Of a stretch of DNA of 64,000 bases, positions 3,001 through 62,525 are shown in pieces; the first letter of the stretch is position 1, and every line of letters starts with the position of its first letter. This stretch comes from Chitinivibrionales bacterium (lineage in GTDB: Bacteria > Fibrobacterota > Chitinivibrionia > Chitinivibrionales > FEN-1185): the NCBI GenBank assembly GCA_035516255.1, contig DATJAL010000047.1:25198-89197 (forward strand), in the 5' to 3' direction. The notes below the pieces were generated by a model, which was given only the letters and a program-made list of their open reading frames with translations, ran no database searches and was not told the origin of the DNA. The position numbers and the translations under genes are program-made.

Positions 3001-3780
3001 TTCCTCGACTGCACCGACAACAACCTGCCGCTTGCCACCCTGCCGCGGCAAGACCAGGGCGCGCTCGCGCTGGTCATCAGGCCCGGCACCACGGGCACCA
3101 TCCTGCTGCCGATTGACAAACCGGAAGCACGCGCGCGGAAAAGGGCCATCACGTCGGCGCTCGACGACAAGGGCACGCTCACGGAAAAGGCGGCCACGCT
3201 GCGCACCGGCGTTTTCGCCGGCTCGTTCCGCGACAGCTACCGGTTCCTCTCCGAGGAGAAACGCAACGCCACGCTGCACCAGAGCCTTGCCCAGCAGTAT
3301 CCCGACATCTCGCTCGACACGTTCTCGCTGCAGGGCCTCAACACCGTGGGCGACACGCTCACCTACAACTACGCGTGCACGGCGCGCAACACCGTGACCT
3401 TTTCCGGCAGCACCGCGATTTTCCCCCTGCGGATTTCGGACAATATCCAGCCGAACGAATATCCGGTGGAGGAAAAGCGCACCTTCCCCATCGACATGTA
3501 CTGGGCATGGTACGATATTTCGTCGTGCGAATTGTCGGGCGAGCTCACCTACCCGGCGGCGTGGCGGCCCATCAGCCTGCCCGACAATGTCTCGGCGGAT
3601 TCGCCGTTCGGCTCGTACCGCCTCGAGTTCAAGCGCAAAGGCAATACGCTGTATTATAAGCGCACCGCGGTCATGAATTTCACCACGGTCATCCCGGCCG
3701 GCGGCCACGAGCAGCTCAAGGCGTTTCTCAACAAGGTGTCGAAGGCGGACGCGATTCAATTGTTGTTTTATACAAAGTAA
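1..3780 (+). CDS. Secreted TPR / transglutaminase-like protein (architecture resembles DUF3857 - transglutaminase core - DUF3858); 5' end outside the window
   Basis: The frame is open from base 1 (KKCCFLQLLSFFAILQLNVPSFA looks like a signal peptide), so the track start at 43 is an internal TTG. Helical TPR-like repeats fill the middle third. Papain-like transglutaminase core KIGDCKDMASLGKSLLDRAGIPSCLVLV...FDGHACV...FNHCILCY. Confidence 0.75.
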   Translation, partial: KKCCFLQLLSFFAILQLNVPSFANPNGQAWSLLIDNKPMEAKELFLKNTTDKDKTVRGEAFRGLSHIARFLGQEEDDARYYFQACQNDNNVLMFSAGVLNTYVFGRFATGSQIKEGYRLMSDLVKKPSIFSGEFIDLLAERYANDGDVNAANRLVDGMGAIRKWMFIGPFDNISNSGYNKVYPPETEINLAKVYPAKDGNKAKWNPLDNTAPTGWIFTEHHCESRNAVLYYYSTVECDEAREAILAFGASGSFKIFLNGVCVCADSVYRNTGADAFMQRVTLCKGANSLLVKLCHEWSSRLSGETRLSNFFVRFLDKGYSPLKNISYSTVPAAPAQQKTVVSRLAPSPLIDTVTGALSARLAKNPGDMDAALSLMLAYNGMEKFDEGQVLAKSFLAKFPKSSLWHQLYSESLTRSKKYTDGETEIKTAYTLCPLNEAGWQNEMQIMQQTSEPRKVLDFIASSPAVFRSSLSALVAELYANYQLENKADVLKIVADIEQKYALNQTALMVLAGVYVQDGQVKKAETLIRDFLAHQHTSTLMYKTLATLALKQGDMGKVADIIQESLKYSPHNASMYYLLASLNYTAKNFSAAHENIERCLAVMPADADALNLRGNIALSLGNKQEAKQAFTDAIDFTSDDFNAWDNLRGLDGKPPLESLAPLPPVDSLVRASEQWPYRSHENGAVLSRTKDVFYYPSRCSRERHFLVVYLGTQKAIDAWKERDIEYNSYFQVMHVVRALSYRANGSQVQADVHEGKVVFKSLQPGDCIVLEWSLKNFYTGDMAGQVHGSQEFDRSHPAFDTRLRLIMPANDTIPYHVFGDSILVSTSTAGDYRVTRFLRPAYKNALDETFTATDWPAKEKVNYSTFSGWADIVKWYDDLTRRKQDNTLELKALADSLFAGCATELAKVEKVHEYVTGNIRYSYVPFRQSGWIPQDAHDVLATKIGDCKDMASLGKSLLDRAGIPSCLVLVNTEIRHFDGHACVGPDFNHCILCYTVAGQDRFLDCTDNNLPLATLPRQDQGALALVIRPGTTGTILLPIDKPEARARKRAITSALDDKGTLTEKAATLRTGVFAGSFRDSYRFLSEEKRNATLHQSLAQQYPDISLDTFSLQGLNTVGDTLTYNYACTARNTVTFSGSTAIFPLRISDNIQPNEYPVEEKRTFPIDMYWAWYDISSCELSGELTYPAAWRPISLPDNVSADSPFGSYRLEFKRKGNTLYYKRTAVMNFTTVIPAGGHEQLKAFLNKVSKADAIQLLFYTK

Positions 3781-3794
3781 AGATAATAAAGATA

Positions 3795-3920
3795 ACCACA
3801 GAGACACGGAGGCACGGAGAAAATAAAACAGTTTAAAGTTGGAAGTTGAAAGTTGAACGTATTGTCGCTTTTAACCTCCAACACTGTGCGGTATCTCCGT
3901 GCTCTTCGTGTCTCCGTGGT
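3795..3920. repeat. Family-D imperfect inverted repeat enclosing a family-E (GTTGGAAGTTGAAAGTTGAA) hairpin
   Basis: Arms ACCACAGAGACACGGAGGCACGGAGA (3795-3820) and TCTCCGTGCTCTTCGTGTCTCCGTGGT (3894-3920) are reverse complements apart from a few mismatches. Related arms lie at 12193-12300 and a half-site at 8581-8600. Confidence 0.6.
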
Positions 3921-8440: not shown

Positions 8441-8480
8441 CAGGGCACCCCGGCGCGGCATCCGGTCCTGCCTGGCGCGC
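8441..8480 (-). repeat. Truncated 5' fragment of the family-A element
   Basis: The reverse complement GCGCGCCAGGCAGGACCGGATGCCGCGCCGGGGTGCCCTG aligns to the first ~45 nt of copy d (GGCGCCAGGCAGGACTGGAGGCCGCGCCGGAGCGCGGTGCTGCC). Confidence 0.4.
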
Positions 8481-8634
8481 GGCAATCAGTCAACTACCGC
8501 ATTTGTCAACCCCTTGTCAAAATTAAACGCATCAGCAGCCAGACACCACCGAGGGCCAAGAAAGTAAAAACAAAAATTTTACCGCAGAGACACAGAGAAG
8601 GCAAAAAGATATTCCTGAAGTAACCCGTGTCGGC

Positions 8635-8724
8635 TATAATATCACCGCCGCATCCCCGCTGCACTTTTTTGCTTTACATTGGGGACGAGGCGGAAGCCGG
8701 GGGCCAGCGGGAAACTTCCCCCAC
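8635..8724 (+). repeat. X hairpin module preceded by a TATAAT box
   Basis: Sequence is GGCTATAAT-ATCACCGCCGCATCCCC...GGGGACGAGGCGGAAGCCGGGGGCCAGCGGGAAACTTCCCCCACC. It belongs to the same family as 24217-24310, 53444-53530 and 57467-57556. Confidence 0.5.
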
Positions 8725-8765
8725 CACATTATGTTCAATTATTCCATGTTAAGCAGGTATTTACA

Positions 8766-11746: not shown

Positions 11747-12178
11747 TCACGCACCTTCGTCTTTTTTCAGCAGCATCTCCTTGTGGATCGAATCAATCAC
11801 GCCGTTGACGAACTTGCCGGAATCGTCGGTGCCGTACTGCTTGGCAAGTTCCACCGCTTCGTCGATGACCACCTTGAAGGGCACGTCGGCGCAGAAGCGG
11901 AGCTCGGCCACGGCCATGCGCAGGATGTTGCGGTCGATGACGGTCATGCGCTTGAGGTCCCAGTTCGCGGCGTGCTGGCCGAGTAGTGCGTCGATCTCCT
12001 TGATCGACGAAAGCGTTTTTCCTGCGAGCACGCCGGCGTACTCCTTCGCCCCGGAATCGTCGCCCTGGTCGTGAACGATTCCTTCGAGAACGCTGCCGAA
12101 CTCGGCGGTGTTGCCCACTTCGCAGGCGTACAGGGTCTGCAGGGCGAGCTCGCGGGATTTTCGTCTGTTCTGTTGCAT
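11747..12178 (-). CDS. nusB: Transcription antitermination factor NusB
   Basis: 143 aa with RRKSRELALQTLYACEV...DRNILRMAVAEL, typical of NusB. It sits downstream of ribH, as in many bacteria. Confidence 0.9.
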   Translation of the reverse strand: MQQNRRKSRELALQTLYACEVGNTAEFGSVLEGIVHDQGDDSGAKEYAGVLAGKTLSSIKEIDALLGQHAANWDLKRMTVIDRNILRMAVAELRFCADVPFKVVIDEAVELAKQYGTDDSGKFVNGVIDSIHKEMLLKKDEGA

Positions 12179-12192
12179 AGGGTTTTAAAGAG

Positions 12193-23351: not shown

Positions 23352-24212
23352 ATGAGCGTTCTCGTTGTCGGGCACCGGGGCCAGCTCGGCCGGGACATGA
23401 TGCTCGCCGCCGCCGCCAAAGGCTTCGCCGTGCACGGCGAGGATTTCCCCGGCATTGACATCACGCGCCTTGACAGCGTCACGAAAGCGGTGGCGCGGTA
23501 CCGCCCGGCGGCCGTCATCAATTGCGCCGCGTTCACCGCTGTTGACCAATGCGAATCCGAGACCGCGAAGGCGTTCGCGGTCAACGCCGACGGCGCGAAA
23601 AACCTCGCGCTTGCCGCGGCGGAGTGCGGCGCGAAGCTCGTGCACCTCAGCACCGACTATGTTTTCGACGGGATGAAAAAAACGCCCTATGTGGAAACGG
23701 ATAAGCCCAACCCCCTTTCCGTGTACGGAAAATCCAAACTCGAGGGAGAGAAGCTGCTCGCCGAAACCTACGACCGGTGCTTCATCGTCCGCGTGGCCTG
23801 GCTCTACGGCACCAGGGGAAACAATTTCCTCAAGACCATCCGCAGCCGCGCACAGAAATGCGCGGTGACGGGCGAACCGGTCAAGGTGGTCAACGACCAG
23901 ATCGGCACACCCACCTACACGATGCACGTTTGCCGGCAGCTGCTTTCCCTGATGCAATCCGAGCATTTCGGGATATATCACGGAACGAACGAGGGGTCGT
24001 GCTCCTGGTTTGACTTTGCAAGCGCGATTGTGAAGGCATACGCCATAAAGGCAAACGTGGTTCCCTGCACGACGGCTGAGTTCCCGCGGCCCGCGCCGAG
24101 ACCGGCAAACAGCGTATTGGAGAATGAGAGACTGAAAAAGCTGCTGATGAATACCATGCCGAGGTGGGAGATGGGGTTGGAGGAATATTTGGAGGAAGAG
24201 AAAAAGATATAG
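23352..24212 (+). CDS. rfbD: dTDP-4-dehydrorhamnose reductase
   Basis: MSVLVVGHRGQLG...STDYVFDG...YGKSKLEGE. The track start at 23298 overlaps the upstream gene, so ATG 23352 was chosen. Confidence 0.9.
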   Translation: MSVLVVGHRGQLGRDMMLAAAAKGFAVHGEDFPGIDITRLDSVTKAVARYRPAAVINCAAFTAVDQCESETAKAFAVNADGAKNLALAAAECGAKLVHLSTDYVFDGMKKTPYVETDKPNPLSVYGKSKLEGEKLLAETYDRCFIVRVAWLYGTRGNNFLKTIRSRAQKCAVTGEPVKVVNDQIGTPTYTMHVCRQLLSLMQSEHFGIYHGTNEGSCSWFDFASAIVKAYAIKANVVPCTTAEFPRPAPRPANSVLENERLKKLLMNTMPRWEMGLEEYLEEEKKI

Positions 24213-24216
24213 TATT

Positions 24217-24380
24217 GGAGGGGGAGGTTTCCCCCTGGGGTGCAGCTTCCACCGCCTCCTTCACAGAAAAGAAAATGTAGGCCGGAAGCGGTGGCGATCT
24301 GCACCCGCACCCCTTCCTGGGTGCGGCCGGGTACCGACAGCGGCAAGATTCACACTTTTGGTGGGCGCACCCGCGGAGGG
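24217..24380 (-). repeat. Y-X module, inverted copy, starting 5 nt after the rfbD stop
   Basis: The reverse complement reads ...GTGTGAATCTTGCCGCTGTC...GGGGTGCGGGTGCAGATCGCCACCGCTTCC-loop-GGAGGCGGTGGAAGCTGCACCCCAGGGGGAAACCTCCCCC and aligns with 57375-57556. Confidence 0.55.
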
Positions 24381-24450
24381 TAGTTGATTAAGAGAAAGCT
24401 TTCTTACCTTGATTTATTAATGATAATTAAAATCTGAGGCAGGAAAAAAT

Positions 24451-37127: not shown

Positions 37128-37197
37128 GTTGGAAGTTAAGGGTTAAAAGTTGAAAATAACAAAACAAATAATCAACATCAAACTTTCATCTTCCAAC
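37128..37197. repeat. Family-E inverted repeat
   Basis: GTTGGAAGTTAAGGGTTAAAAGTTGA (37128-37153) and TCAACATCAAACTTTCATCTTCCAAC (37172-37197) are imperfect reverse complements. Confidence 0.5.
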
Positions 37198-37235
37198 TTT
37201 AAACTATTTATTCTGCGCTCTCTCCGGTAATTTTA

Positions 37236-39065: not shown

Positions 39066-39139
39066 GACGTCCCGGTGCCAATTGAATTTTAATCAACAGT
39101 CTCCCGTTGCTGACCTTTTCAACTGCCCTCCGGAGGACC

Positions 39140-39224
39140 GGTCGCGCAGATTTCCGGTTACGAAATCATGGGAAATATTTTGAAACGCGACCGGGCCGCA
39201 GCGAGGGGGAAACCTCCCCCACCA
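39140..39224 (+). repeat. Degenerate Y-X module
   Basis: CGAAATCATGGG (compare CGCAAATCATGGG at 57429) followed by ...GCAGCGAGGGGGAAACCTCCCCCACCAGAATTTTTTT. Confidence 0.35.
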
Positions 39225-39281
39225 GAATTTTTTTAAAATTTGGAAATGTCAAATCCCTCCCCTCCTGTCAATCATTTCACC

Positions 39282-39791: not shown

Positions 39792-39922
39792 TGACTTTAA
39801 ACTAAATTATCCCATGGGAGAAAATTCAAGTATAAATTTGTATTGCCGTATATCAAACCATAACACGCGTGGGACAAGCGATTGGTCAGGGTTGTCGATG
39901 AATTATTGACAAATGTCCGACC

Positions 39923-40116
39923 GGCGCCATTATAGTCTGTTGGCTAACCAGAATTCCGCCGCCGCGTTAGGGGCGACGGAGGGTGCGCTGGAGCGCATTG
40001 CCGGCCGACCCCGCCGCAAGGCATCGGGGCGGTCCGGCAACGAGGCAATTAGCCGAGCCCGGAGGAGAACCGACCCGAACCTGAGGTTTACCGAAGGTGA
40101 GGGGAACGCCCATCTT
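39923..40116 (+). repeat. Family-A multi-helix GC-rich element, copy a (candidate structured RNA)
   Basis: 194 nt from GGCGCC to GGGGAACGCCCATCTT. It shares module order and helices with 52899-53082(-), 57100-57279(-) and 61264-61400(+). Hairpins include TGCGC-TGGA-GCGCA, TTGCCGG...CCGGCAA, GCC-GCAA-GGC and GGC-AATTA-GCC. Confidence 0.55.
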
Positions 40117-40293
40117 TTCCAACTACGATTGCTATAGTAAGTATTATGCCCCCCCAAATATTATTTTAGGTGACCAGTTTACAGCGCTCTTTTTATCTGG
40201 GGCGGGACCCGTGTGCCGGAGAGATGCCGGTCAAGGGGTCAGCCGGTTTCCCGATAGTATTGCTGGCGAGCTTTACCGACAGGATATTGTATC

Positions 40294-47973: not shown

Positions 47974-49524
47974 ATGCGCATCCTTCTCATCAACACCAAC
48001 CAGTTAAAGATCCCGTTTCCGGTCATGCCCGTGGGGCTGTGCTCCGTGGCCGCCTCGCTCGAGGCGGCGGGCCACCAGGTGAAGGTGTTGGACCTCTGCT
48101 TTTCGCTCAACCCAGCCGCCGACATCGCCGCGGCGGTCGCGTCGTTTTCGCCGGGCATGGCCTGCGCGGGCATACGCAACATCGACATGGCCAACGGCTT
48201 CAGGCCCGCGTTCATGCTTGACAAAATAAAAACTGGCGTGATCGTCCCGCTCAAGCGGGTATTTTCCGGTCCCGTCGTGCTGGGAGGCCCGGCGGCGGGG
48301 ATCAACGGCGCCGAGCTGCTTGGCTATTTTGACTGCGACTATGCAGTGCAGGGCGACGGCGAAGGGACAACGGTCGCGCTCGCGAACCGCATTGAAGCGG
48401 ACCTGAGCCCGGGCGGCATGGCCGGGCTCATCATCCGGCGCAAGGGCATTGTGGCCGAAGCAAATCCCCCGGATTTTCCAGACGATCTCGACACTCTCCC
48501 GCCCTCGCGGCCGCAGAAATACCTTAACTGCGCGCTTTACAAACTGTACAACTCGCCGTTCCCCGTGCAAACAAAACGCGGTTGTGCCCTTTCGTGCGTC
48601 TATTGCACCTATAACCGCATCGAGGGCCGTGTCTACCGGCTGCGCTCCCCTTCCGCGATCGCGGACGAGATCCAGGAATTCGCCGCGGCCACCGGCAACC
48701 GCACCGTGGAGATCGTCGACAGCACGTTCAACGTGCCGCTTGACCATGCCAAGGCGGTGCTCAGGGAAATTATCTCGCGCAACGTAAAATTGCGCCTGTT
48801 AACCATGGGACTGAACCCGCGCTTTCTGGACCGCGAACTCGCGGGACTCATGAAACAGGCGGGATTCGTCGAGGCATGCTTCGGCACCGAGGCGATTTGC
48901 GACGACATGTTAAAAAGTTTCGGAAAAAATTTTTCAGTGGCTGACATCCGAGCGGCCGCGGACATCATCCACCAGACCCGCATTCCGGCGTCGTGGTTCC
49001 TCATCATCGGCGCGCCGGGCGAAACGGCGAAGACCATCAAAGAGACTTTTTCGAACATCAGCCGCATCGCGGCCCCGCTTGACCTTGTCAACATCGGCGT
49101 GGGCATACGCGTGTACAACGGCGCGCCCATTGCCGAAACGTGGAAGGCCGAAACAAAAAGTTCTACACCCGACAATTTCCTCACGCCCGTCGCGTATCAG
49201 CCCGGCACTCTCACCATGAAAAAACTCAAGGCCGTCACGCGGCTCGCCGCGGCGCTGCACCATAATTTCTTCATGTTCGACGAGGGCGCGGTCATCCTTC
49301 TGCCGGTGAGGATCATCATGGGCCTGTTTTTCGCGAACCAGCCGCTGTGGCGGGGCTATATCGTGATGCGGCTGTTTGAAAAATATTCAGGCGTGTTTTT
49401 GGTGAGGGCGCTCATCGCGTGGGTAAGGTGCAATGCGGCGTTTCGGAAAGGGATGAGGGCTATAATGGCTGCAAAGGAAAATAAGATGACAGGTGATCGA
49501 AGTCTGTATCGTTATGAAGAATAA
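47974..49524 (+). CDS. B12-binding domain radical SAM protein with a hydrophobic C-terminal extension
   Basis: N-terminal Rossmann-like B12 domain (MRILLINTNQLKIPFPVMPVGLCSVAASLEAAGHQV), the CxxxCxxC motif CALSCVYC, and a C-terminal ~90 aa with hydrophobic helices. Confidence 0.85.
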   Translation: MRILLINTNQLKIPFPVMPVGLCSVAASLEAAGHQVKVLDLCFSLNPAADIAAAVASFSPGMACAGIRNIDMANGFRPAFMLDKIKTGVIVPLKRVFSGPVVLGGPAAGINGAELLGYFDCDYAVQGDGEGTTVALANRIEADLSPGGMAGLIIRRKGIVAEANPPDFPDDLDTLPPSRPQKYLNCALYKLYNSPFPVQTKRGCALSCVYCTYNRIEGRVYRLRSPSAIADEIQEFAAATGNRTVEIVDSTFNVPLDHAKAVLREIISRNVKLRLLTMGLNPRFLDRELAGLMKQAGFVEACFGTEAICDDMLKSFGKNFSVADIRAAADIIHQTRIPASWFLIIGAPGETAKTIKETFSNISRIAAPLDLVNIGVGIRVYNGAPIAETWKAETKSSTPDNFLTPVAYQPGTLTMKKLKAVTRLAAALHHNFFMFDEGAVILLPVRIIMGLFFANQPLWRGYIVMRLFEKYSGVFLVRALIAWVRCNAAFRKGMRAIMAAKENKMTGDRSLYRYEE

Positions 49525-49680
49525 ACGCACCATGGTGAAGACACAACGCCGCGATGATGCAATCGGCTGGGCTCCCGATATGATTCTTAAAATATTGAAA
49601 ATGTTATGGCCTTTTATTTCAACCGGCCTACTTTGAGTATACAAGGGAAATGGTCGATGCCAAAACCATCGGAATGTCAC

Positions 49681-50382
49681 TCACCTCTTGGAATAATTCC
49701 CGCCCGCGAGCAACACGTTCGATATTTTTTCCGCCAGCTTTTCAAAGCTTGTCCTTTCGACAGCCGGGACCAGGCCCACGTAATTCTCCTGGATTTTCCC
49801 GAACGAGACGACCCTGCCCGAATCCGCCTTCAGGTAAACGTAGTCCGCGGAAAAATTAAGCGTCGTCTGGCTGAACACGACGTCCTGTTCCTTGTATTCG
49901 ACGGTCGCCGAATCGAGTGCCGCATTGTAAACGAACAGGACAAGGTCGCCCGCTTCGGCGCAGGGAAGTCTTCCCGCAGGACGCCATATTCCGGTGTAGG
50001 CATTTTTCACCCGAACGGAATCCCCGACAACAGCGGCGGCCTGCCGGCCGCACCACTTCACGCTGCGGAAGCATGAGGTCTTCGAAAGGTTTGCCGCAAC
50101 GGCCTGCTCAAAGAAACTGACGATCAGGGAATCTTTCCTGCCTTTTCCCAGGATCTTTTCCACGGAGCCCGGGAAGTTGATCGTGGAATTAAAAAACGGC
50201 ATTATGGTCAGATTGCATGCCGCGAGCTGTGTTCTGTCGAGCTTGACAACAACATACGTGGGAGCACAGGACGCCGTACAAAAGAATACTGCCATGAGGA
50301 TTCTTTGGGTAATTACTAGTTTGAGCCTTGTCAAAATGCGCCTCGTGTATTCTTTGGAGGTTATTTTCCAGTCAAGAATCAA
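49681..50382 (-). CDS. Hypothetical lipoprotein
   Basis: Lipobox-like ...ILMAVFFCTASC. The start is uncertain: TTG 50382 overlaps the ispG stop, and ATG 50295 is the alternative. No family was recognised. Confidence 0.4.
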   Translation of the reverse strand: MILDWKITSKEYTRRILTRLKLVITQRILMAVFFCTASCAPTYVVVKLDRTQLAACNLTIMPFFNSTINFPGSVEKILGKGRKDSLIVSFFEQAVAANLSKTSCFRSVKWCGRQAAAVVGDSVRVKNAYTGIWRPAGRLPCAEAGDLVLFVYNAALDSATVEYKEQDVVFSQTTLNFSADYVYLKADSGRVVSFGKIQENYVGLVPAVERTSFEKLAEKISNVLLAGGNYSKR

Positions 50383-51448
50383 CCTTGGCTTTTTCTTTGA
50401 TCAGTTTCTGCACATAGCTCCATAAAACATCAAGTAATTTTTCCTCCGGTACCTTCTCCTTCATTTTCCCCTTTACGAAAATCCGCCCTTCGCCCCTGCC
50501 GCCCGCGATGCCCACGTCCGCGTCGGCGGCCTCGCCCGGGCCGTTCACGATGCAACCCATGACCGCGATTTTGATGTCCGCCGTGAGCGGGGCAGCCATT
50601 GCCTCAACCTTTTCGGCGAGCGCGACCACGTTTATCTGGGTGCGTCCGCACGTGGGGCAGGCGATCACGGTGGGCCCCGGGGCTAGGCCCAGGCTCTTGA
50701 GGATCGCGATGCCGGCGTACACTTCGTTGACGGGATCGGAACACAGCGATACGCGCAGCGTGTCGCCGATGCCTTCGGCAAGAAGCGCGCCGATGCCCAC
50801 GCTCGAGCGTATGGTGCCGGTTCTGAGCGTGCCGGATTCGGTGATGCCGATGTGCTGGGGAACGTCGGTTTTCCGTGACAACAGGCGGCACGCCTCGATC
50901 GTGGTGAGGACGTCGCTTGCCTTTATTGATAAAATGATGTCGCCGAACGAAAACTTCTCCATCATTGCAATGAACCCGAGGCCGCTTTGCACGAGCGCCT
51001 GCGGCGTTGCGCCGCCGTATTTTTCAAGCAGCTCTTTTTCAAGCGAGCCCGAATTGACTCCTATACGGATGGGGACATGCGCGGCCCTTGCCGCGTCAAC
51101 CACCTTTTTCACCTTATCTGCCGCGCCGATGTTTCCAGGATTGATGCGCACCTTGTCGGCGCCCGCCTCGATCGCGGCAACGGCGAGCTCGTGCTGGAAA
51201 TGGATGTCGGCCACGAGAGGTACTTTTGTTCCTTTCCGTATTTTCGCGAACGCCGCGGCCGCGTTTCGGTTGGGAACCGCGACGCGCACGATTTTGCACC
51301 CGGCAGCAAAAAGCTTTTCTATCTGGCCGAGCGTGGCGTCAACGTCCTCGGTGGCGGTGTTGGTCATCGACTGGACAGGAATCGGCGAATTGCTGCCGAT
51401 GGGAATATTCCTGACTGTGATTTGGCGGGTTTTTTTACGGGTGATCAT
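50372..51448 (-). CDS. ispG: 4-hydroxy-3-methylbut-2-en-1-yl diphosphate synthase
   Basis: MITRKKTRQITVRNIPIGSNSPIPVQSMTNT...CPTCGR... ATG 51448 matches the usual IspG N-terminus; the track GTG at 51490 adds 14 aa. Confidence 0.95.
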   Translation of the reverse strand: MITRKKTRQITVRNIPIGSNSPIPVQSMTNTATEDVDATLGQIEKLFAAGCKIVRVAVPNRNAAAAFAKIRKGTKVPLVADIHFQHELAVAAIEAGADKVRINPGNIGAADKVKKVVDAARAAHVPIRIGVNSGSLEKELLEKYGGATPQALVQSGLGFIAMMEKFSFGDIILSIKASDVLTTIEACRLLSRKTDVPQHIGITESGTLRTGTIRSSVGIGALLAEGIGDTLRVSLCSDPVNEVYAGIAILKSLGLAPGPTVIACPTCGRTQINVVALAEKVEAMAAPLTADIKIAVMGCIVNGPGEAADADVGIAGGRGEGRIFVKGKMKEKVPEEKLLDVLWSYVQKLIKEKAKVDS

Positions 51449-51487
51449 TTCTTGGTTTTCCTGATGATAAATTATTCGATCCGTTTT

Positions 51488-51590
51488 CACCTCACCCCAT
51501 CACCCCGGCCCTGCGCTTCGCTTCGGGCCACCCTCTTCCCCTCTCCGTGGCGGAGAGGGGAAGAGGGGCCGGAGGAGCAGGGTCAGGCGA
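51488..51590. repeat. Family-C repeat containing a perfect 17-bp hairpin
   Basis: CCCTCTTCCCCTCTCCG (51531-51547), loop TGG, CGGAGAGGGGAAGAGGG (51551-51567), preceded by CCTCACCCCATCACCCCGGCC...GGGCC. Confidence 0.6.
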
Positions 51591-51660
51591 GAAATAACAG
51601 AGGCCCGCTCGCGCAGGCCCCCACCACGTGTTCAATCCGGAATAATTTCCATCACGCCGT

Positions 51661-52806
51661 TCACATCGCCTGCACCTGCAGCGATACCCTCAGCCCGTTC
51701 AGTCCCGACACCGCGATGCTGCCCGCGCCCGACTTCAGCTTGAACCCGTCGATGCGTGTGCAGAAGCCGTTCGCGTTGCCCTTGTACTGCAGGTCGACCA
51801 TGAGCAGCTTGCTCTGCATGTCCCAATTCCGCTCGTGCACGGCCGACACGTTGGGCACCCACGTGAGCGTCTGGATCAGGTCGTTCTTGAGCCGGAAGGT
51901 GGAAACGCCGCTGATGGTGATCGACAGGGTCATGCCGTTGTTCTGCTGGTTGTTCCACTCCTTTACTATTTTGTCAAGAAGGTCCCTGATCGCCTTTTGC
52001 GACGCCTTGGCGATGGCCTGCGTGCCGGCCGTGTTGGCGCTGACGTGCACCATGGCCGCGTGCTCCTGCGCCGTTCCCATGATGCTCCCCGTGGTGCAAT
52101 TGATGGCGCGGAGCGTCACGTCGGCCTGCACCGACACCATGCCGCCTAAATTCTGGTTAAGGTTCTTTGCCTCCCTGCTCACCGCGCTGCCCGTGATGAT
52201 CACCTCCGCGCCGCTCTGCGTGCCGAGCTGGGCCGCTGCCGCCACGTCGCCGGCGATGCTCGCCATTTTTTCCTGCGAGGCGCGGATTGCGGCGCTCGCC
52301 TTCGGGTCGACAAGATCGAATTCGTAAGGATCCTTCAGGAACTGGAGAATGGTCGCCTCGGCCGACGAGTTGGTGGGCTCCCCGGTCCCCACGTTGTTCT
52401 CGTCGATCACCACCATGGTGCGCGGCTTGTTCATGGACTCGATGAGGATGTGAAACGCGGCAAGGTCCTGGGTGATGGAGCTTTTCGAGAGCACGGCCTT
52501 GATCTTCACTTCATAAGACCCGGCCTCGCTTTTCCCTTCCGAGATTTTTTCGTAGCTTTTCACCGAGCCGATGGTCTTGGTGATGATCTGGTCTTTTTTC
52601 ACCATGAAATTCTCGATTTCGGTCTGCGAAAGAAGTATGGTGCCGATGCCTTTCTCAATGGCGTTGCGCTTTGCCGCCAGAAGCGCCTCTTCCGGGTTCG
52701 CCCCTTCGCCAAATCCCTCCGCGACAATGGTTTCGTCCTGGGCAAGAACTAGGCCGGCGCCGAAAACAAGCAGGAACCCCGCGCACAGCGCAATCATTTT
52801 CCGCAT
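51661..52806 (-). CDS. Secreted protein/lipoprotein with LPP20-like N-terminal domain
   Basis: ATG 52806 is preceded by GAGGAGGA. Signal peptide MRKMIALCAGFLLVFGAGLVLA. The N-terminal AEGFGEGANPEEALLAAKRNAIEKGIGTIL pattern resembles LPP20/FlgO-type domains. Confidence 0.5.
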   Translation of the reverse strand: MRKMIALCAGFLLVFGAGLVLAQDETIVAEGFGEGANPEEALLAAKRNAIEKGIGTILLSQTEIENFMVKKDQIITKTIGSVKSYEKISEGKSEAGSYEVKIKAVLSKSSITQDLAAFHILIESMNKPRTMVVIDENNVGTGEPTNSSAEATILQFLKDPYEFDLVDPKASAAIRASQEKMASIAGDVAAAAQLGTQSGAEVIITGSAVSREAKNLNQNLGGMVSVQADVTLRAINCTTGSIMGTAQEHAAMVHVSANTAGTQAIAKASQKAIRDLLDKIVKEWNNQQNNGMTLSITISGVSTFRLKNDLIQTLTWVPNVSAVHERNWDMQSKLLMVDLQYKGNANGFCTRIDGFKLKSGAGSIAVSGLNGLRVSLQVQAM

Positions 52807-52898
52807 AGCAATCCTCCTCTTTGTGACCGGAAACAACGGTGAAAGTATGAATATATATTATCTCAAAACTGGTGGCCTGATGTCAATAGTCTATAAGT

Positions 52899-53082
52899 AA
52901 AGAGGCGGGCGTTCCGCGGCTTCGCCACGGCGGCCGTCCTTCCGGTCTCGCCTTTGGCTCGGGCTGCCACGGCCCCTGTATGCCTTCAGCGAGGGCCGGG
53001 CAGCACCGCGCTCCAGCACGGCCTCCAGTCCTGCCTAACGCGGCGGCGGAGTTCCAGTTAGTCAACGCACCATCGTGGCGCC
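52899..53082 (-). repeat. Family-A element, copy b
   Basis: The reverse complement runs GGCGCCACGATGG...CCGCCGCCGCGTTAGGCAGGACTGGAGGCCGTGCTGGAGCGCGGTGCTGCCCGGCCC...GGGGCCGTGGCAGCCCGAGCCAAAGGCGAGACCGGAAGGACGGCC...GGAACGCCCGCCTCTT. Its core is about 90 percent identical to copy d. Confidence 0.55.
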
Positions 53083-53110
53083 AATCGATCGTTTGCAGCG
53101 TCAAGTATGA

Positions 53111-53156
53111 CCTCACCCCGGCCTTACAGGCCACCCCTCTCCGAATTGGAGAGGGA
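53111..53156. repeat. Family-C REP-like hairpin
   Basis: CCTCACCCCGGCCTTACAGGCCACCCCTCTCCGAATTGGAGAGGG. Confidence 0.45.
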
Positions 53157-53272
53157 AAACGATTTGTTTTTGTCACTTACTTTGTCGTATTACCAAATGA
53201 AGTGATGCAGTGGCGCAGTTGTCAAGTATTAACCAACAACCAAGCTAATGGAAATCTTTTCTTGTAATTGGC

Positions 53273-53530
53273 TATACTATTTGTCTTTTTCCGCCGTGTA
53301 AAGCTTGACCTGCCGCAGGCGGATGGTAAGCCACCCGGGTCCCCGCACACCACGAGACTCCGGCGCCAAAGAGGGGGTGTGCATATAAAATCTTCAATCA
53401 ATATTTTCTCCCTCTCCCATTGGGAGAGGGCGGGGTGAGGTCTGATCACCGCCGCATCCCACGGCAGTGTTTGTCTTGACATATGGGATGCGGCGGAAGC
53501 CGGGGGCCAGGGGGGAGACTTCCCCCACCG
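53273..53530 (+). repeat. Y-X module (with TATACT box and an inserted family-C REP)
   Basis: Parts in order: TATACT (53273-53278); TCCGCCGTGTAAAGCTTGACCTGCCGC...CGGCGCCAAAGAGGGGGTGTG; REP at 53408-53440; a 13-bp perfect stem CCGCCGCATCCCA / TGGGATGCGGCGG; GGGGGA-GACT-TCCCCC. Confidence 0.55.
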
Positions 53531-53558
53531 GAATGTTTCTTAATGGGAAAAGAATTTA

Positions 53559-54773
53559 TCAGAATCCTTGTAACCCGCAGCACCTGGTGCACACCGGCAT
53601 CAACCCCTTTTTCATCTCGCGCCGGAAGGTCTTGAACTTCTCGCCGTTCCAGACATCGTAGAACGGCGTATCGTTGATGTTGCCGCAGGTGTAGTCCTGG
53701 TAGTCGCGGCAGGGCGTGACGCGGCCGTCGGGAGAGACTTCGGCGATGAAGTAGATGCTCTCGCAGCTGGGATAGCCGCAATGCCAGGTGTGGTCGGTGT
53801 AGTAGCGCCGGATTTCCTGTTCGGTGGTGATATCGGGCAAAAACTGCGGCACCGATGACCGGCCTTTGGAGATTTTTATGACCTCGGCGATCTGCGCCGC
53901 GGTGGCGGCCGGATCGACGTCGTTGAAGCACGATTTAAGGTAGCCGCGGTGGTTCCGGGGCTTGTAGCCGAACCGCTCCTCGAACACCTTTTCGTGGAGC
54001 GCGGAGCGCTCCTCGGTGATGAACCAGCCGAAGTAGAACGGGTGCAGCTGCGTTTTGTCAAGGACAAGCCGGTGGATGTCGGCCAGGTGCCGGTGGTTGT
54101 CGTTTGAGATGACGCTGATGGGAATGATGAGCGGGAACCTCAGGTTTTTCTTTTTCTTCATGGCGTCCACCTTGTCGATGATCGCCATGGTCTTCTCGAA
54201 GTTCTGCGACGACCCGCCGCTCGCGGGCGAGCGCATCAGGTTCTGCGACGCCGCGTCCCATCCGTCAAGGCTCAGAAACAGCACCGACAGCGAGCCGGTG
54301 GCCACGAGGTCGTCGATGATGGGGTCGAGCGCCTGGGCGTTGGTCACGATGGAGCCGAGCAGCTTGTACTTGGCCATTTCCTGGAACAGGGGCAAGAGCG
54401 GCTTCCACATGGTGGGCTCCCCGCCCCAGATGTAATAGTACGGCCGGTCGCGCCGCGTCTCGAACACCACGCGCTTCACCACATCAAAGTCGAGCTGCTG
54501 CAGCTTTTCGCCGCGCGAAAGCTTCGCGTTGAGGTGGCCGTTCTCGCCCCATTGCCCGCACGAGCGGCACCGCAGGTTGCACACCTCGTTGACGCGGAGG
54601 GAAATCTGCCCCACCGGGATGTTCTTGTCCCACCGGTGCGGAACAAGGTATTTGCGCACCTGGTGCGGCAGCATGTGCCAGTAGCTCAGGTCTGAAAATG
54701 AAAACAGCGGCGGGACGATGTAGTTCCACACGAATTGCGTCGGGAGAAGGGCCTTGCCCCTGAATTTGGCCAT
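53559..54773 (-). CDS. Radical SAM protein with C-terminal SPASM/twitch-like Cys cluster
   Basis: CNLRCRSC (CxxxCxxC) near residue 65. The C-terminus reads PCRDYQDYTCGNINDTPFYDVWNG...MPVCTRCCG. 404 aa. Confidence 0.85.
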   Translation of the reverse strand: MAKFRGKALLPTQFVWNYIVPPLFSFSDLSYWHMLPHQVRKYLVPHRWDKNIPVGQISLRVNEVCNLRCRSCGQWGENGHLNAKLSRGEKLQQLDFDVVKRVVFETRRDRPYYYIWGGEPTMWKPLLPLFQEMAKYKLLGSIVTNAQALDPIIDDLVATGSLSVLFLSLDGWDAASQNLMRSPASGGSSQNFEKTMAIIDKVDAMKKKKNLRFPLIIPISVISNDNHRHLADIHRLVLDKTQLHPFYFGWFITEERSALHEKVFEERFGYKPRNHRGYLKSCFNDVDPAATAAQIAEVIKISKGRSSVPQFLPDITTEQEIRRYYTDHTWHCGYPSCESIYFIAEVSPDGRVTPCRDYQDYTCGNINDTPFYDVWNGEKFKTFRREMKKGLMPVCTRCCGLQGF

Positions 54774-54810
54774 GATAATTCTTCCTGTTCTATTTTCTAA
54801 TTTTTAATCT

Positions 54811-54960
54811 GGTGGGGGCACCGCTTCGCGTTTCCCCCTGGCCCCAAGCCTCCTAGCCGCGCGTTGCGCGTCTGCGGGGTCTCGGGGCACACCCCCTCCA
54901 GCAAAGGGGCGCGCGAGGTCGCTCGCGTTCGCTCGCGATGCGTCGCCCCTTCGCAACGCA
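54811..54960 (-). repeat. Diverged Y-X-like module upstream of the rSAM/SPASM gene
   Basis: The reverse complement contains ...CCCCTTTGCTGGAGGGGGTGTG...GGCTTGGGGCCAGGGGGAAACGCGAAGCGGTGCCCCCACC. It also shares CCTTCGCAACGCA with 43491-43505. Confidence 0.35.
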
Positions 54961-55145
54961 TCTTCTGCAGTTCATCCCCCTCCGCCTCCGGCACCTCCCC
55001 CTTGGAAAGGGGGAGTGACTTTACTTATGATATTCCTGCCTAACGCATCGGCGAACATTTATTCCACTTCAACCTTTACTTGCTCCAATTAACTTCAGTT
55101 CCAATTCAAAGAGACTTAAAAATATCTCCTGCTCATTCCTGTTTC

Positions 55146-57071
<1,926 letters not shown>

Positions 57072-57099
57072 AGTGTTCTAAAATAATTTCTTACTAAAT

Positions 57100-57279
57100 A
57101 AGATGGGCGTTCCCATTCTTGCTTTACATAGACACAATTATCATGGCGCCTGCCGGTCACGGTACCGTGCCTCCTTCCGGGCTCGGCTAGTCGCCTCGTT
57201 GCCGGACCGCCCGAAGTCGCCTTCGGTGAAGGGGTGGCCGGCAATTCGCTCTTGCTCACCCTCCAGTCCGCACTGGCGC
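57100..57279 (-). repeat. Family-A element, copy c (ends 28 nt before the ABC-F start codon)
   Basis: The reverse complement runs GCGCCAGTGCGGACTGGAGGGTG...TTGCCGGCC...CGAAG-GCGA-CTTCG...GGTCCGGCAACGAGGCGACTAGCCGAGCCCGGAAGGAGGCACGGTACCGTGACC...GGGAACGCCCATCTT. Confidence 0.55.
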
Positions 57280-57355
57280 AAAACATCATCCTGCGTATTT
57301 TGTTAATCTGGATTTCAAATTCTGACAGGAACGAACTGTCAGAAAATGTCAAAGC

Positions 57356-57556
57356 TATAATATTTTATCTTCATCCGCCGTGTAAAATTTGCGCTGCCGC
57401 CGCTGTCTCGCCAGCCACTAAGTATCTCCGCAAATCATGGGTGTATCGGCGCCAAAGAGGGGGTGTGGGTGCAGATCGCCGCCGCTTTCATTTTCATTTT
57501 GGATTAGCGTTGTGGAAGCGGCGGAAGCTGCACCCCAGGGGGAGACTTCCCCCGCC
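57356..57556 (+). repeat. Y-X module with TATAAT box, upstream of zur
   Basis: Parts in order: TATAAT (57356-57361); TCCGCCGTGTAAAATTTGCG...CGCAAATCATGGGTGTATCGGCGCCAAAGAGGGGGTGTG; a long hairpin GGGTGCAG-ATC-GCCGCCGCTT...AAGCGGCGG-AAG-CTGCACCC; GGGGGA-GACT-TCCCCC. Confidence 0.55.
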
Positions 57557-57576
57557 AGAAAAACACAATGTTTTTC

Positions 57577-59753: not shown

Positions 59754-59757
59754 TAAA

Positions 59758-59830
59758 GAGGTTGAACGGTTGAAAAGTTGAGGAGTTGAGGAGTTTAGAC
59801 ACAGTTGACCGTAGACCGTCAACTTGAAGA
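59758..59830. repeat. Family-E repeat plus 7-bp hairpin inside the znuC-znuB spacer
   Basis: GAGGTTGAACGGTTGAAAAGTTGAGGAGTTGAGGAG (nearly identical to 62209-62243), then AGTTGAC-CGTAGACC-GTCAACT. Confidence 0.5.
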
Positions 59831-61180: not shown

Positions 61181-61263
61181 GGTCAGACCTTTTCTATTAC
61201 CCCACATTTAGAATAGGATACTTTGCAAACGACACTAAAAAAACCACCACATTACCTACTGGT

Positions 61264-61400
61264 GGCGCCAGGCAGGACTGGAGGCCGCGCCGGAGCGCGG
61301 TGCTGCCCGGCCCACGCCGTTAGGCACATAGGGGCCGTGGCAGCCCGAGCCGAAGGCGAGACCGGAAGGACGGCCGCCGCCGCGCTTCGCGGCGGGGCGC
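61264..61400 (+). repeat. Family-A element, copy d (shortest, 137 nt)
   Basis: GGCGCCAGGCAGGACTGGAGG / CCGCGC-CGGA-GCGCGG / GCTGCCCGGCCC..GCC-GTTA-GGC..GGGGCCGTGGCAGC / CCGAG-GCC-GAA-GGC-GAG / ACCGGAAGGAC / CCGCCGCG-CTT-CGCGGCGG / GGCGC, followed by a T-rich tract. Confidence 0.55.
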
Positions 61401-61418
61401 ACAGTTCTTTATTTTTTA

Positions 61419-62198: not shown

Positions 62199-62208
62199 AA
62201 AGCGTTTA

Positions 62209-62525
62209 GAGGTTGAATGGTTGAAAAGTTGAATGGTTAGGAGAAAAACTTTTTGCCGGCCTCAATAACCTTACTGCAATATTTTTCATACCAGAAGTTT
62301 TTCAAACGATAAATTATGACGCACCGCTTGTCCTTTTTTAAACTTCTCACTCAACGGGGGATTGCTTCGCGGAGTTTATCCCGAGCCATGTCGAGGAGCT
62401 CGCAATGACACTTGTGGTGTTTGCTTTCAACTCTCATCTTAACACTTTCAACTTTTTACAACTCATCAACCCGTGTACCCGTCTGCTCGTCAACTTTTCA
62501 CCTTGTCAACCTTTCACCCATTAAA
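62209..62525. repeat. Composite spacer: family-E arms flanking a GATTGCTTCGC...CTCGCAATGACA type REP
   Basis: Left arm GAGGTTGAATGGTTGAAAAGTTGAATGGTTAGGAG (62209-62243). Core GGGGGATTGCTTCGCGGAGTTTATCCCGAGCCATGTCGAGGAGCTCGCAATGACA (62356-62410). Inverted family-E tracts TTCAAC...GTCAACTTTTCACCTTGTCAACCTTTCACC (62426-62525). Confidence 0.5.

Follow-up and report, generated by a model that had tools for sequence, protein, structure and literature searches.

A portable intergenic cassette of Chitinivibrionales pairs two structured elements head to head around a promoter-like core

Introduction

Among described intergenic repeats, those nearest in behaviour to the system discussed here are the mosaics of repetitive extragenic palindromic (REP) sequences, which are imperfect palindromes of approximately 20–40 nt, and the promoter-bearing miniature inverted-repeat transposable elements (MITEs). 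Bacterial interspersed mosaic elements (BIMEs) and REPINs are interspersed mosaics mobilised by RAYT transposases, and MITEs such as Correia/NEMIS of Neisseria, RUP, BOX, and ERIC are non-autonomous, dispersed, polymorphic in their presence or absence, and able to carry promoter-like boxes. Closest in core sequence are the symmetric bidirectional promoters of bacteria (Warman et al. 2021, as cited in PMC10268837), in which the −7T and −11A positions pair reciprocally and the two start sites lie 18 bp apart (PMC10268837; see also PMC12825309). Closest in the type of evidence are the orphan structured-RNA classes, including the Weinberg/Breaker motifs and the orphan RNAs of Rfam, which combine conserved structure and abundant covariation with occurrence in a narrow lineage and in environmental DNA. 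Here, we analyse a stretch of 64,000 nt (the window) from a Chitinivibrionales bacterium (assembly GCA_035516255.1, contig DATJAL010000047.1), in which repeated elements occupy three successive intergenic regions between 52.8 and 57.6 kb. The best reading of the part at 52837–53558 is that it is one copy of a lineage-specific, multi-copy, non-autonomous intergenic cassette of Chitinivibrionales and related peat and wetland metagenomes.

The cassette consists of two elements, family A and family Y-X, that point outward from an AT-rich core. In the reading to which we assign a probability of roughly 55%, it is a portable unit without a protein gene, its core drives transcription of two structured small RNAs in opposite directions, and the structures of these RNAs are under selection. 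The bidirectional promoters known from bacteria stand singly and yield an mRNA together with an antisense or non-coding RNA that is incidental. In the cassettes, the predicted box would be a constant component of the repeat and would give rise to two structured RNAs, both conserved. The cassettes also differ from the orphan RNA classes, having a far higher copy density and an obligatory head-to-head pairing of two families that is not found in those classes. At least two undescribed classes of structured RNA, and probably four or more, appear to be represented, with covariation support that matches that of accepted RNA families. The literature on structured RNAs of Fibrobacteres, on Chitinivibrionales, and on the motif sequences themselves yielded nothing relevant.

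The host lineage, Chitinivibrionales (Fibrobacterota), is poorly studied and common in peat and wetland metagenomes. The head-to-head layout, the exchange of domains, the ends formed by a helix and CCA, and the gain and loss of a block without a protein gene fall outside the categories of riboswitch, small RNA, REP, MITE, and guide RNA borne by an insertion sequence (IS). If the RNAs are expressed, the cassettes would be a tractable system for studying how genes for non-coding RNAs proliferate and spread in bacteria, what purpose bidirectional promoters serve, and whether selection can shape RNA structure to benefit an element and not its host.

Results and discussion

Two families paired head to head

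Copies in the window were detected with a repeat scan, profile hidden Markov models, and a covariance model (CM), and were compared with 131 related loci (labelled below by L and a number) in 1.01 Mb of collected Fibrobacterota/Chitinivibrionales DNA. Among A and Y-X neighbours no more than 500 nt apart in the window and these loci, 55 pairs were divergent, 1 was in tandem, and none was convergent. The preliminary description of this DNA, made from the window sequence, would have been refuted by a genome-wide association of the two families no stronger than chance, and these counts clearly show the opposite. Seen from the A side, 143 copies had enough upstream DNA to be classified: 57 face away from a Y-X element, 26 from a second A (making 13 back-to-back pairs), 8 from a third family, B, and 1 is in tandem, with nothing detected upstream of the remaining 51. 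In most pairs, 200–300 nt separate the 5′ end of A from the 3′ end of Y-X.

The pairing extends to subtypes. The alpha subtype of A is found with Y type 2 in 3 of 4 pairs, and the beta subtype in none of 26. A copies with a CGCCGCCGCG flank pair with Y type 2, which is the Y type at both loci described below, and those with a TGCCnnGCG flank pair with Y type 1 and never with type 2.

The first of these loci (locus 1) is made up as follows.

52895–53048, minus strand: family A element, copy b (core 52900–53048); nhmmer E = 4.5e-42 over 52886–53100; fits the covarying consensus structure
53049–53100, minus strand: conserved 5′ flank of the alpha subtype of A, ATTGGCGCCA-N12-TTGACTAA-N3-GAAYTCC
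53111–53156, minus strand: REP-like palindromic repeat of family C within the core; a secondary insertion, absent at locus 2
53249–53302, both strands: AT-rich core with overlapping divergent sigma-70-type promoters predicted by a consensus scan
53289–53381, plus strand: Y domain of type 2 (TCCGCCGTGTAAA ... CGGCGCCAAAGAGGGGGTGTG) ending in a conserved G-run; aligns with locus 2, L016, L029, L031, and L115
53382–53445, plus strand: 64-nt insertion with a second REP (53408–53440), by comparison with 48 Y-X cores
53446–53535, plus strand: X domain, with an ATC linker to 53447, the P2 hairpin at 53449–53496, GGAAGC, and then the 3′ strand of P1, P3, and A-CCG

Every part that had been listed for 52837–53558 is thus present at or near the coordinates given for it. 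The claim that the unit recurs about 4 kb away also stands: locus 2 has identical part order and orientation, and is without the REPs.

57095–57281, minus strand: family A element; nhmmer E = 1.6e-38
57282–57374, both strands: core of locus 2, with a symmetric TATAATA box at 57356–57362
57375–57562, plus strand: intact Y-X (Y type 2 and X); CM score 90.9 bits, E = 1e-19; single-sequence fold z-score −4.6; covariation

The alpha flank occurs with identical spacing before A at window position 39910 and in L090, L108, L031, and L029, and it could be either an RNA leader or a protein-binding or promoter element. In all of these copies (53049–53100 on the minus strand, 39910–39956 on the plus strand, and the four other loci), it contains a perfect 8-bp palindrome, TGGCGCCA, 12 nt before TTGACTAA, which by its sequence looks more like a protein-binding site or a 5′ extension of an RNA than like a standard promoter.

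Two further kinds of module were seen in the related loci. Family B, a third structured repeat without a match in Rfam, sits divergently upstream of A copies that lack a Y-X partner (L103 4768–4976, L072 5231–5417, L046 509–725, and L080 11439–11617 on the plus strand; L096 5459–5667 on the minus strand). Its long-range helix takes the form CAGUGGCGC...GCGCCACUG or CAUCAGCGCCGCC...GGCGGCGCUG. A fourth module (L068 ~2790–2880; L103 ~200–500 and ~11900–12180; L022 ~3760–3900) has a Y1-like 5′ domain, GGGTGCCCC...GGGGTCACCC, joined to a different 3′ part, GGCNCAGCNATCCA(A/G)A with an AT-rich loop, sometimes in two or three repeats. Because this module joins a known 5′ domain to a different 3′ part, its sequence suggests that domains may be shuffled between families.

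Conserved structure on opposite strands

Family A elements are approximately 140–270 nt long, those of loci 1 and 2 measuring about 150–190 nt, and have at least 8 helices. The structure was derived from an alignment of 98 diverse copies, on which RNAalifold was too conservative, returning 15 pairs only; helices were therefore obtained from mutual information and stacking and then tested. P1 is formed by GCGUU with AACGC, switched to GCGCC with GGCGC in 25 sequences, and in P2/P2b the pair between columns 37 and 150 is C-G in 49 sequences and U-A in 43. The model also holds a P3 hairpin, a long P4/P4a arm, P5 with tandem G.A, and a variable P7 hairpin. Across its 47 pairs, 91.7% of cells are paired, compared with 33–46% when the 3′ partners are slid by 1–3 columns, and cells in which both partners have changed number 464 versus 153 in shuffles; none of 500 shuffles reached the observed value in any of five measures.

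Y-X elements are approximately 170–250 nt long, with an X core of approximately 70–140 nt and 3 helices. In an alignment of 25 sequences, 95.8% of the cells in P1–P3 are paired (45–58% when slid) and double changes number 93 versus 28, with 0 of 500 shuffles reaching four of the five measures and 1 of 500 reaching the fifth, further pair types. P1 of X exists in at least six compensated versions, including GGGUGCAG, GGGUGCGG, GCCCCCGG, GCCCCAAG, and GCCACCGG.

At locus 2, P1 of Y-X is formed by GGGTGCAG and CTGCACCC. The arms of P2, CCGCCGC and GCGGCGG, enclose an AU-rich loop of 35 nt, and P3 is GGGGGA-GACT-TCCCCC, followed by G-CCA. The accompanying A has a partly mismatched P1 (GCGCC versus AACGC) and an enlarged P7. 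Judged by sequence, both halves of this cassette look usable. At locus 1, copy b of A has the 5′ strand of P1, GCGTT, at 53041–53037 and ends in GGAACGC-CCG-CCTCTT. Its Y-X partner retains a perfect 13-bp helix in X (53449–53461 paired with 53484–53496) and the P3 hairpin GGGGGGA-GACT-TCCCCC at 53510–53526, and the 64-nt insertion lies where the 5′ strand of the outer helix P1 (expected GCCCCCGG) belongs, which leaves the 3′ strand, CGGGGGC, orphaned at 53501–53507. The CM score is 48.6 bits, versus 90.9 bits at locus 2. Since the REP-containing insertion replaces one strand of the outer helix, the locus 1 Y-X is probably defective or dead.

Because the balance of G.U pairs against A.C mismatches proved uninformative as a strand test (68 versus 88), the folding strand was assigned from the composition of loops and junctions. 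Unpaired positions of family A are rich in purines (A 1819 versus T 538; G 1804 versus C 793), its hairpin loops are of the GNA/GNRA or NNRA type, and in P3, P5, and P7 tandem G.A/A.G pairs alternate with Watson–Crick pairs. These strongly strand-specific features, which are typical of folded RNA, assign A to the minus strand and Y-X to the plus strand at both loci, so that the halves point outward from the core. The tandem G.A motifs also suggest internal loops that may bind protein. The earlier supposition that the halves of the cassette are structured elements on opposite strands is thereby upheld, by the covariation tests together with the strand-specific composition of unpaired positions.

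A protein-coding reading of the open reading frames (ORFs) that overlap A (52883–53176 and 57068–57352) was rejected because the family alignment has indels of 1–2 nt and compensatory changes of paired positions. Covariance models of A and Y-X would keep annotation pipelines from calling such spurious ORFs, of which the 97-aa ORF at 52883–53176 is an example.

The P2 hairpin of Y-X (window 53450–53497 and 57466–57522; L001, L006, L009, L010, L011, and L031) has an AU-rich hypervariable loop or distal stem of 20–35 nt, which often contains TTGACA and sometimes a TATAAT-like box after it. From its sequence, this loop could be a target-pairing loop or an embedded promoter.

A promoter-like core

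The preliminary description had pointed to a TATAAT-like box before the Y segment. In both loci this box is, as a sequence match, a symmetric TATAMTA heptamer, and because the heptamer is common to both strands the −10 hexamers of the two directions are offset by 1 nt. A consensus scan of locus 1 found 3 promoter-like sites where 0.4 were expected. The rightward site is TGGAAA-18-TATACT (53249–53278) and the leftward site TTTACA-17-TAGTAT (53302–53274), with −10 hexamers at 53273–53278 on the plus strand and 53279–53274 on the minus strand. The corresponding hexamers at locus 2 are TATAAT (57356–57361, plus strand) and TATTAT (57362–57357, minus strand), the leftward site being TTTACA-18-TATTAT (57386–57357). 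At each locus −35-like boxes flank the −10 pair on both sides, and the leftward −35 box, TTTACA, falls inside the conserved GTGTAAA of Y type 2. Both cores thus have the geometry of a symmetric bidirectional sigma-70 promoter, as far as a sequence match can indicate.

A −10-like box lies approximately 7–13 nt before Y type 2 at both loci and in L016, L031, and L115, and directly before X in a truncated copy at window position 8640. Promoter-like boxes also precede some A copies.

Tandem 8-mers of the form GTTGA(A/C)NN (TTCAACNN on the other strand) are found directly before Y type 1, and also a short way ahead of start codons in intergenic regions that are empty apart from them, such as the 27-nt spacer of L119 (~3581–3607). 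Other occurrences are at window positions 59757–59794, 62208–62232, 3826–3854, and 37181–37209 and in L001 (5400–5440 and 6790–6830). Judged by sequence, they may belong to a promoter, act in translation, or bind a regulator.

Helix-CCA ends and known RNA families

Both families end in a helix followed by CCA. In A, P1 is followed by C, C, and A in 95, 98, and 85 of 98 sequences, respectively, and then by R-N-T-Y-T; in Y-X, a terminal G5:C5 hairpin and one variable base are followed by C, C, and A in 25, 22, and 23 of 25 sequences. Beyond the element end, a T-rich stretch follows A (CCCA-R-N-T-Y-T) and an A-rich stretch follows Y-X. A helix with (N)CCA is the hallmark of tRNA-like 3′ ends, and its presence on two unrelated RNAs suggests, by analogy, that they may be matured or recognised by common machinery. 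Such ends are known from transfer-messenger RNA (tmRNA), from viral tRNA-like structures, and from the Mauriceville retroplasmid, and both the Y-X hairpin with one nucleotide and CCA and the closing helix of A with CCA recall them. The cassettes differ from these systems in having no cloverleaf, no ARAGORN match, and no reverse transcriptase nearby, and we take the resemblance to be a lead rather than homology.

Searches against known RNA families returned nothing for the elements. With the 4227 families of Rfam 15, the window gave only a tRNA (34904–34977) at the gathering threshold, and E-value scans of both loci (E ≤ 10) and of 17 related loci gave chance-level matches only, the best on A being c-di-GMP-II-GAG (17 bits, E = 3). 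Resemblances to Cobalamin, Moco, SRP, and c-di-GMP-II RNAs that had been noted by eye were not borne out by these searches. ARAGORN run on the window likewise reported the tRNA at 34904–34977 and no tRNA or tmRNA at the elements.

Gain, loss, and exchange of the cassette

Comparison of orthologous intergenic regions shows that the elements come and go as a block. In L068, an intergenic region of 407 nt contains Y-X (minus strand) and A (plus strand) where L119 has a 27-nt spacer, with flanking proteins that are 79–81% identical. L005 and L080 have flanking DNA that is 90–94% identical and unrelated element content, an A (minus)/Y-X (plus) cassette in L005 and, at the equivalent site of L080, a mosaic in which remnants of X and of A are combined with family B and a 3′ fragment of A. 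L006 and L131 have different subtypes at one site. The supposition of a portable, recurring unit is therefore well founded. A further candidate empty site (L049/L012) proved to be a rearrangement with a gene remnant and was not used.

The view that the REPs are secondary insertions into an existing unit is likewise supported, both by their absence from locus 2 and by the interruption of other cassettes by the same type of REP. This REP-like family, CTCTCC-N4-6-GGAGAGGG-(N)-GGGGTGAGG, was found at window 53111–53156 and 53408–53440, in L005 (~2440–2480), and in L018, L019, L075, and L102, and inserts repeatedly, in either orientation, into cassette cores and Y domains.

The same observations raise the question of whether the cassettes are repeats that act as DNA, of the REP/BIME/REPIN type or MITE-like, with hairpins that serve as single-stranded or cruciform DNA for a transposase encoded elsewhere and any RNA being incidental. 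We consider this account doubtful, though it deserves serious weight. The cassettes resemble REP-type mosaics in being high-copy, strictly intergenic, structured, and mosaic, in the alternating orientation of their modules, in often lying near gene 3′ ends, and in turning over fast, with truncated and recombinant copies common. The back-to-back A/A pairs amount to large inverted repeats, genuine REP-like palindromes coexist with the cassettes in the same genome and insert into them, and G.U pairs are not favoured over A.C mismatches, all of which this account would accommodate.

Against it, the modules are 150–250 nt long with multi-way junctions and, in A, at least 8 compensated helices, in contrast to palindromes of 20–40 nt; REP form is confined to the family-C inserts at 53111–53156 and 53408–53440, and A and the X core fail on REP size. 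The two halves of a cassette are unrelated in sequence. Purine-rich unpaired positions on one strand, GNRA/GNA loops, and tandem G.A replacing Watson–Crick pairs are features of RNA structure, and the halves fold on opposite strands, unlike IS200/IS605-type element ends, which are read on one strand. The flanks of 42 cassettes showed no target-site duplication (their longest common substring averages 4.6 nt, versus 4.8 nt for mismatched flanks, with boundaries uncertain by a few nucleotides), and by eye the cassette ends share CCCA/CCA-type motifs only, with no terminal inverted repeats seen. The lack of target-site duplication sets them apart from MITEs, as does the high divergence of copies within one genome in which structure is kept. 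No RAYT/HUH or other transposase appeared among the recurrent ORF clusters in approximately 1 Mb of flanking sequence, whole genomes not having been searched.

Other copies in the window

The remaining copies in the window show the same modules in other states of completeness.

8450–8731: third divergent cassette, truncated, with a 5′ fragment of A (8505–8450, minus strand), X only (8641–8731, plus strand), and TATAATA immediately before X
24211–24385, minus strand: solitary intact Y-X copy
39130–39229, plus strand: solitary Y-X-like element of the X2 class
39949–40120, plus strand: solitary family A copy, preceded by TTGACA-17-ATTATA / TATAGT
54805–55010, minus strand: Y-X with a type-3 Y domain; CM score 59.4 bits, E = 3e-12
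61250–61414, plus strand: solitary family A copy that shares 92% identity with copy b in its centre

The Y-X at 54805 is preceded by a 13-nt remnant of the 5′ end of A (GCGTTAGGCAGGA, ~55050–55038, minus strand). The A copy at 61250 differs from copy b in a compensated P1 (GCGCC with GGCGC), in P7, and in its T-rich tail. The likeness of these two copies at the centre, together with their unlikeness in the compensated P1 and in P7, suggests that modules may be exchanged between A copies.

Distribution and copy number

A search of the 1.01 Mb with nhmmer gave 183 family A matches, including 138 distinct full-length cores, of which 118 are less than 88% identical to one another; approximately 110 Y-X copies were collected from the same DNA. 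The window has approximately 5 A and 6 Y-X copies in 64 kb, and if this density holds genome-wide, it extrapolates to roughly a hundred or more copies of the cassette elements per genome. A motif derived from A matches the window 3 times, versus 0.11 expected. In an exact-pattern scan of the GTDB species representatives, the motif at the 3′ end of X was found at 12 loci, all within four Fibrobacterota/Chitinivibrionales metagenome-assembled genomes, and a scan of JGI metagenomes with the family A motif found at least 119 stretches, many of which share long contigs. Neither the A motif nor the Y-X motif had any match among IMG/VR viral contigs, on which ground a phage origin was rejected.

Neighbouring genes

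The genes next to the cassettes belong to ordinary housekeeping families. In the window they encode IspG, an unannotated lipoprotein, a radical-SAM/SPASM protein, an ABC-F ATPase, a Fur-family regulator with ZnuABC, and DUF218. All ORFs encoding 150 aa or more were clustered across the loci and the top clusters were annotated with Pfam; in 1 Mb and 131 loci, no transposase, reverse transcriptase, or other protein family was linked to the elements, and the top clusters are housekeeping paralogues (ABC exporter, PAS histidine kinase, B12/radical-SAM, glycosidases, FabF, and RpoD). An origin as the end of an IS or transposon was rejected on these clusters and on the negative target-site duplication test. 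IS-associated guide or scaffold RNAs, such as the omega RNA of TnpB/IscB or the bridge RNA of IS110, were set aside since no nuclease or recombinase ORF family was found in the 131 loci.

The elements could instead be leaders that regulate in cis, in the manner of riboswitches or attenuators, with a portable bidirectional promoter carrying them and driving the gene on either side. Some contexts invite this view: the A of locus 2 ends 24 nt before the ATG of the ABC-F gene at 57071, the Y-X at 54805 ends approximately 30 nt upstream of the ATG of the radical-SAM/SPASM gene (54773), and 43% of A copies point the same way as the next gene, with a median distance of 82 nt between the 3′ end of the element and the start codon. 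Orientation overall is, however, near random (64 of 150 A copies and 19 of 51 Y-X copies are co-oriented with the downstream gene), so that a convergent gene turns its 3′ end toward 57% of A and 63% of Y-X copies, the A copy at 61250 is followed by a convergent gene only, and the neighbouring genes are unrelated in function. A near-consensus extended −10 promoter, TTGACA-18-TGnGATAAT (11 of 12 matches; 52857–52886, minus strand), lies between the A 3′ end and the ATG of the lipoprotein gene at locus 1 and would, by its sequence, drive that gene independently of A; locus 2 also has a promoter-like site, located between X and its Fur-family gene. We therefore regard leaders as very unlikely, and the elements do not qualify as a riboswitch or other cis-regulatory 5′ leader.

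Their 3′ ends lie closer to convergent stop codons (median 21 nt) than to co-oriented start codons (median 82 nt), and solitary A copies have a median of 270–300 nt of non-coding DNA upstream. This asymmetry is as expected for a unit that has an upstream control region and ends at its own 3′ boundary. Proximity to stop codons, the T-rich stretch after A, and a slight excess of element contexts at gene 3′ ends would also suit modules of operon boundaries, that is, bidirectional terminators, insulators, or 3′-end stabilisers for neighbouring genes. We think this unlikely: the canonical hairpin with a U-tract is not present, termination has no need of elaborate junctions, invariant unpaired purines, or strict head-to-head pairing, and the empty orthologous intergenic regions manage with 27 nt.

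A probable divergent pair of small RNAs

Two alternatives had been offered for the cassette, a promoter or leader module for the flanking genes and a pair of divergently transcribed small RNAs. The first is not supported, given the orientation of neighbouring genes and the separate promoter-like sites described above. The second is the better one, being favoured by the portability of the unit, the structures on opposite strands, the promoter-like core, and the status of the REPs as secondary insertions, with transcription itself being a prediction from sequence.

In this model, RNA polymerase is predicted to initiate either way from the symmetric TATAMTA −10 box. Transcription to the left would give the family A RNA, a rod with GA-rich internal loops that widens into a three-way junction and is closed by the 5-bp P1. 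Rightward transcription would give the Y-X RNA, composed of the variable 5′ Y domain, the conserved G-run, and the outer helix, which encloses a hairpin with a long hypervariable AU-rich loop, and then the terminal G5:C5 hairpin. As both RNAs end in a helix followed by CCA, their 3′ ends may mature as in tRNAs, with CCA marking the mature end. The two RNA genes would travel together, the cassette being gained, lost, and exchanged as a block between intergenic regions while its modules recombine. The RNAs would act in trans or serve the spread of the cassette, and selection on their structures could come from a benefit to the cell or from a need of the spreading cassette.

Several observations weigh against this reading. 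The search for a promoter motif shared by every A copy was negative, upstream conservation being confined to subfamilies, and Y type 1 is preceded by tandem TTCAAC(N2-3) 8-mers with no obvious TATAAT box, a further departure from the known bidirectional promoters. A canonical intrinsic terminator (hairpin and U-tract) was not found at the end of either element at either locus. Copy b of A is no more stable than its shuffles (z = −0.7), so the evidence for the A structure is comparative rather than thermodynamic. The helices of A have no excess of G.U pairs over A.C mismatches, an unusual feature in a functional RNA and one that would also be compatible with selection acting on the DNA. Finally, the many truncated and mosaic copies and their fast turnover fit selfish repeats as well as they fit useful RNA genes.

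A more far-reaching version of the small-RNA model is speculative, and we hold it to be rather improbable. It sees the cassette as a portable module without proteins that carries two or more interchangeable RNAs with tRNA-like helix-CCA tags. These RNAs would take part in spreading the cassette, perhaps by serving host enzymes of tRNA processing or reverse transcription as templates or substrates, or else they would form a large paralogous set of scaffold RNAs that present the hypervariable AU-rich P2 loops of Y-X to targets. The interchangeable RNAs may include family B and the Y1-variant modules.

Additional observations

The tRNA gene at 34904–34977 (minus strand), supported by Rfam (51.2 bits) and ARAGORN, has an unusual four-base anticodon as read by ARAGORN (gcaa), which assigned no amino acid to it. 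A NiCo riboswitch (RF02683; 49.7 bits, E = 1e-8) lies at L085 1641–1726 (minus strand) and is unrelated to the cassette.

The only other retrieved contig that covers locus 1, L132 (JGI contig 3300032783|Ga0335079_10025086), is 99.94% identical to window 48335–55166, locus 1 included, and strain-level polymorphism at this locus was accordingly rejected. A Logan contig from SRR8881010 matches window 53548–54836 with 100% identity. Both matches point to samples from which the organism, and perhaps its transcripts, might be investigated.

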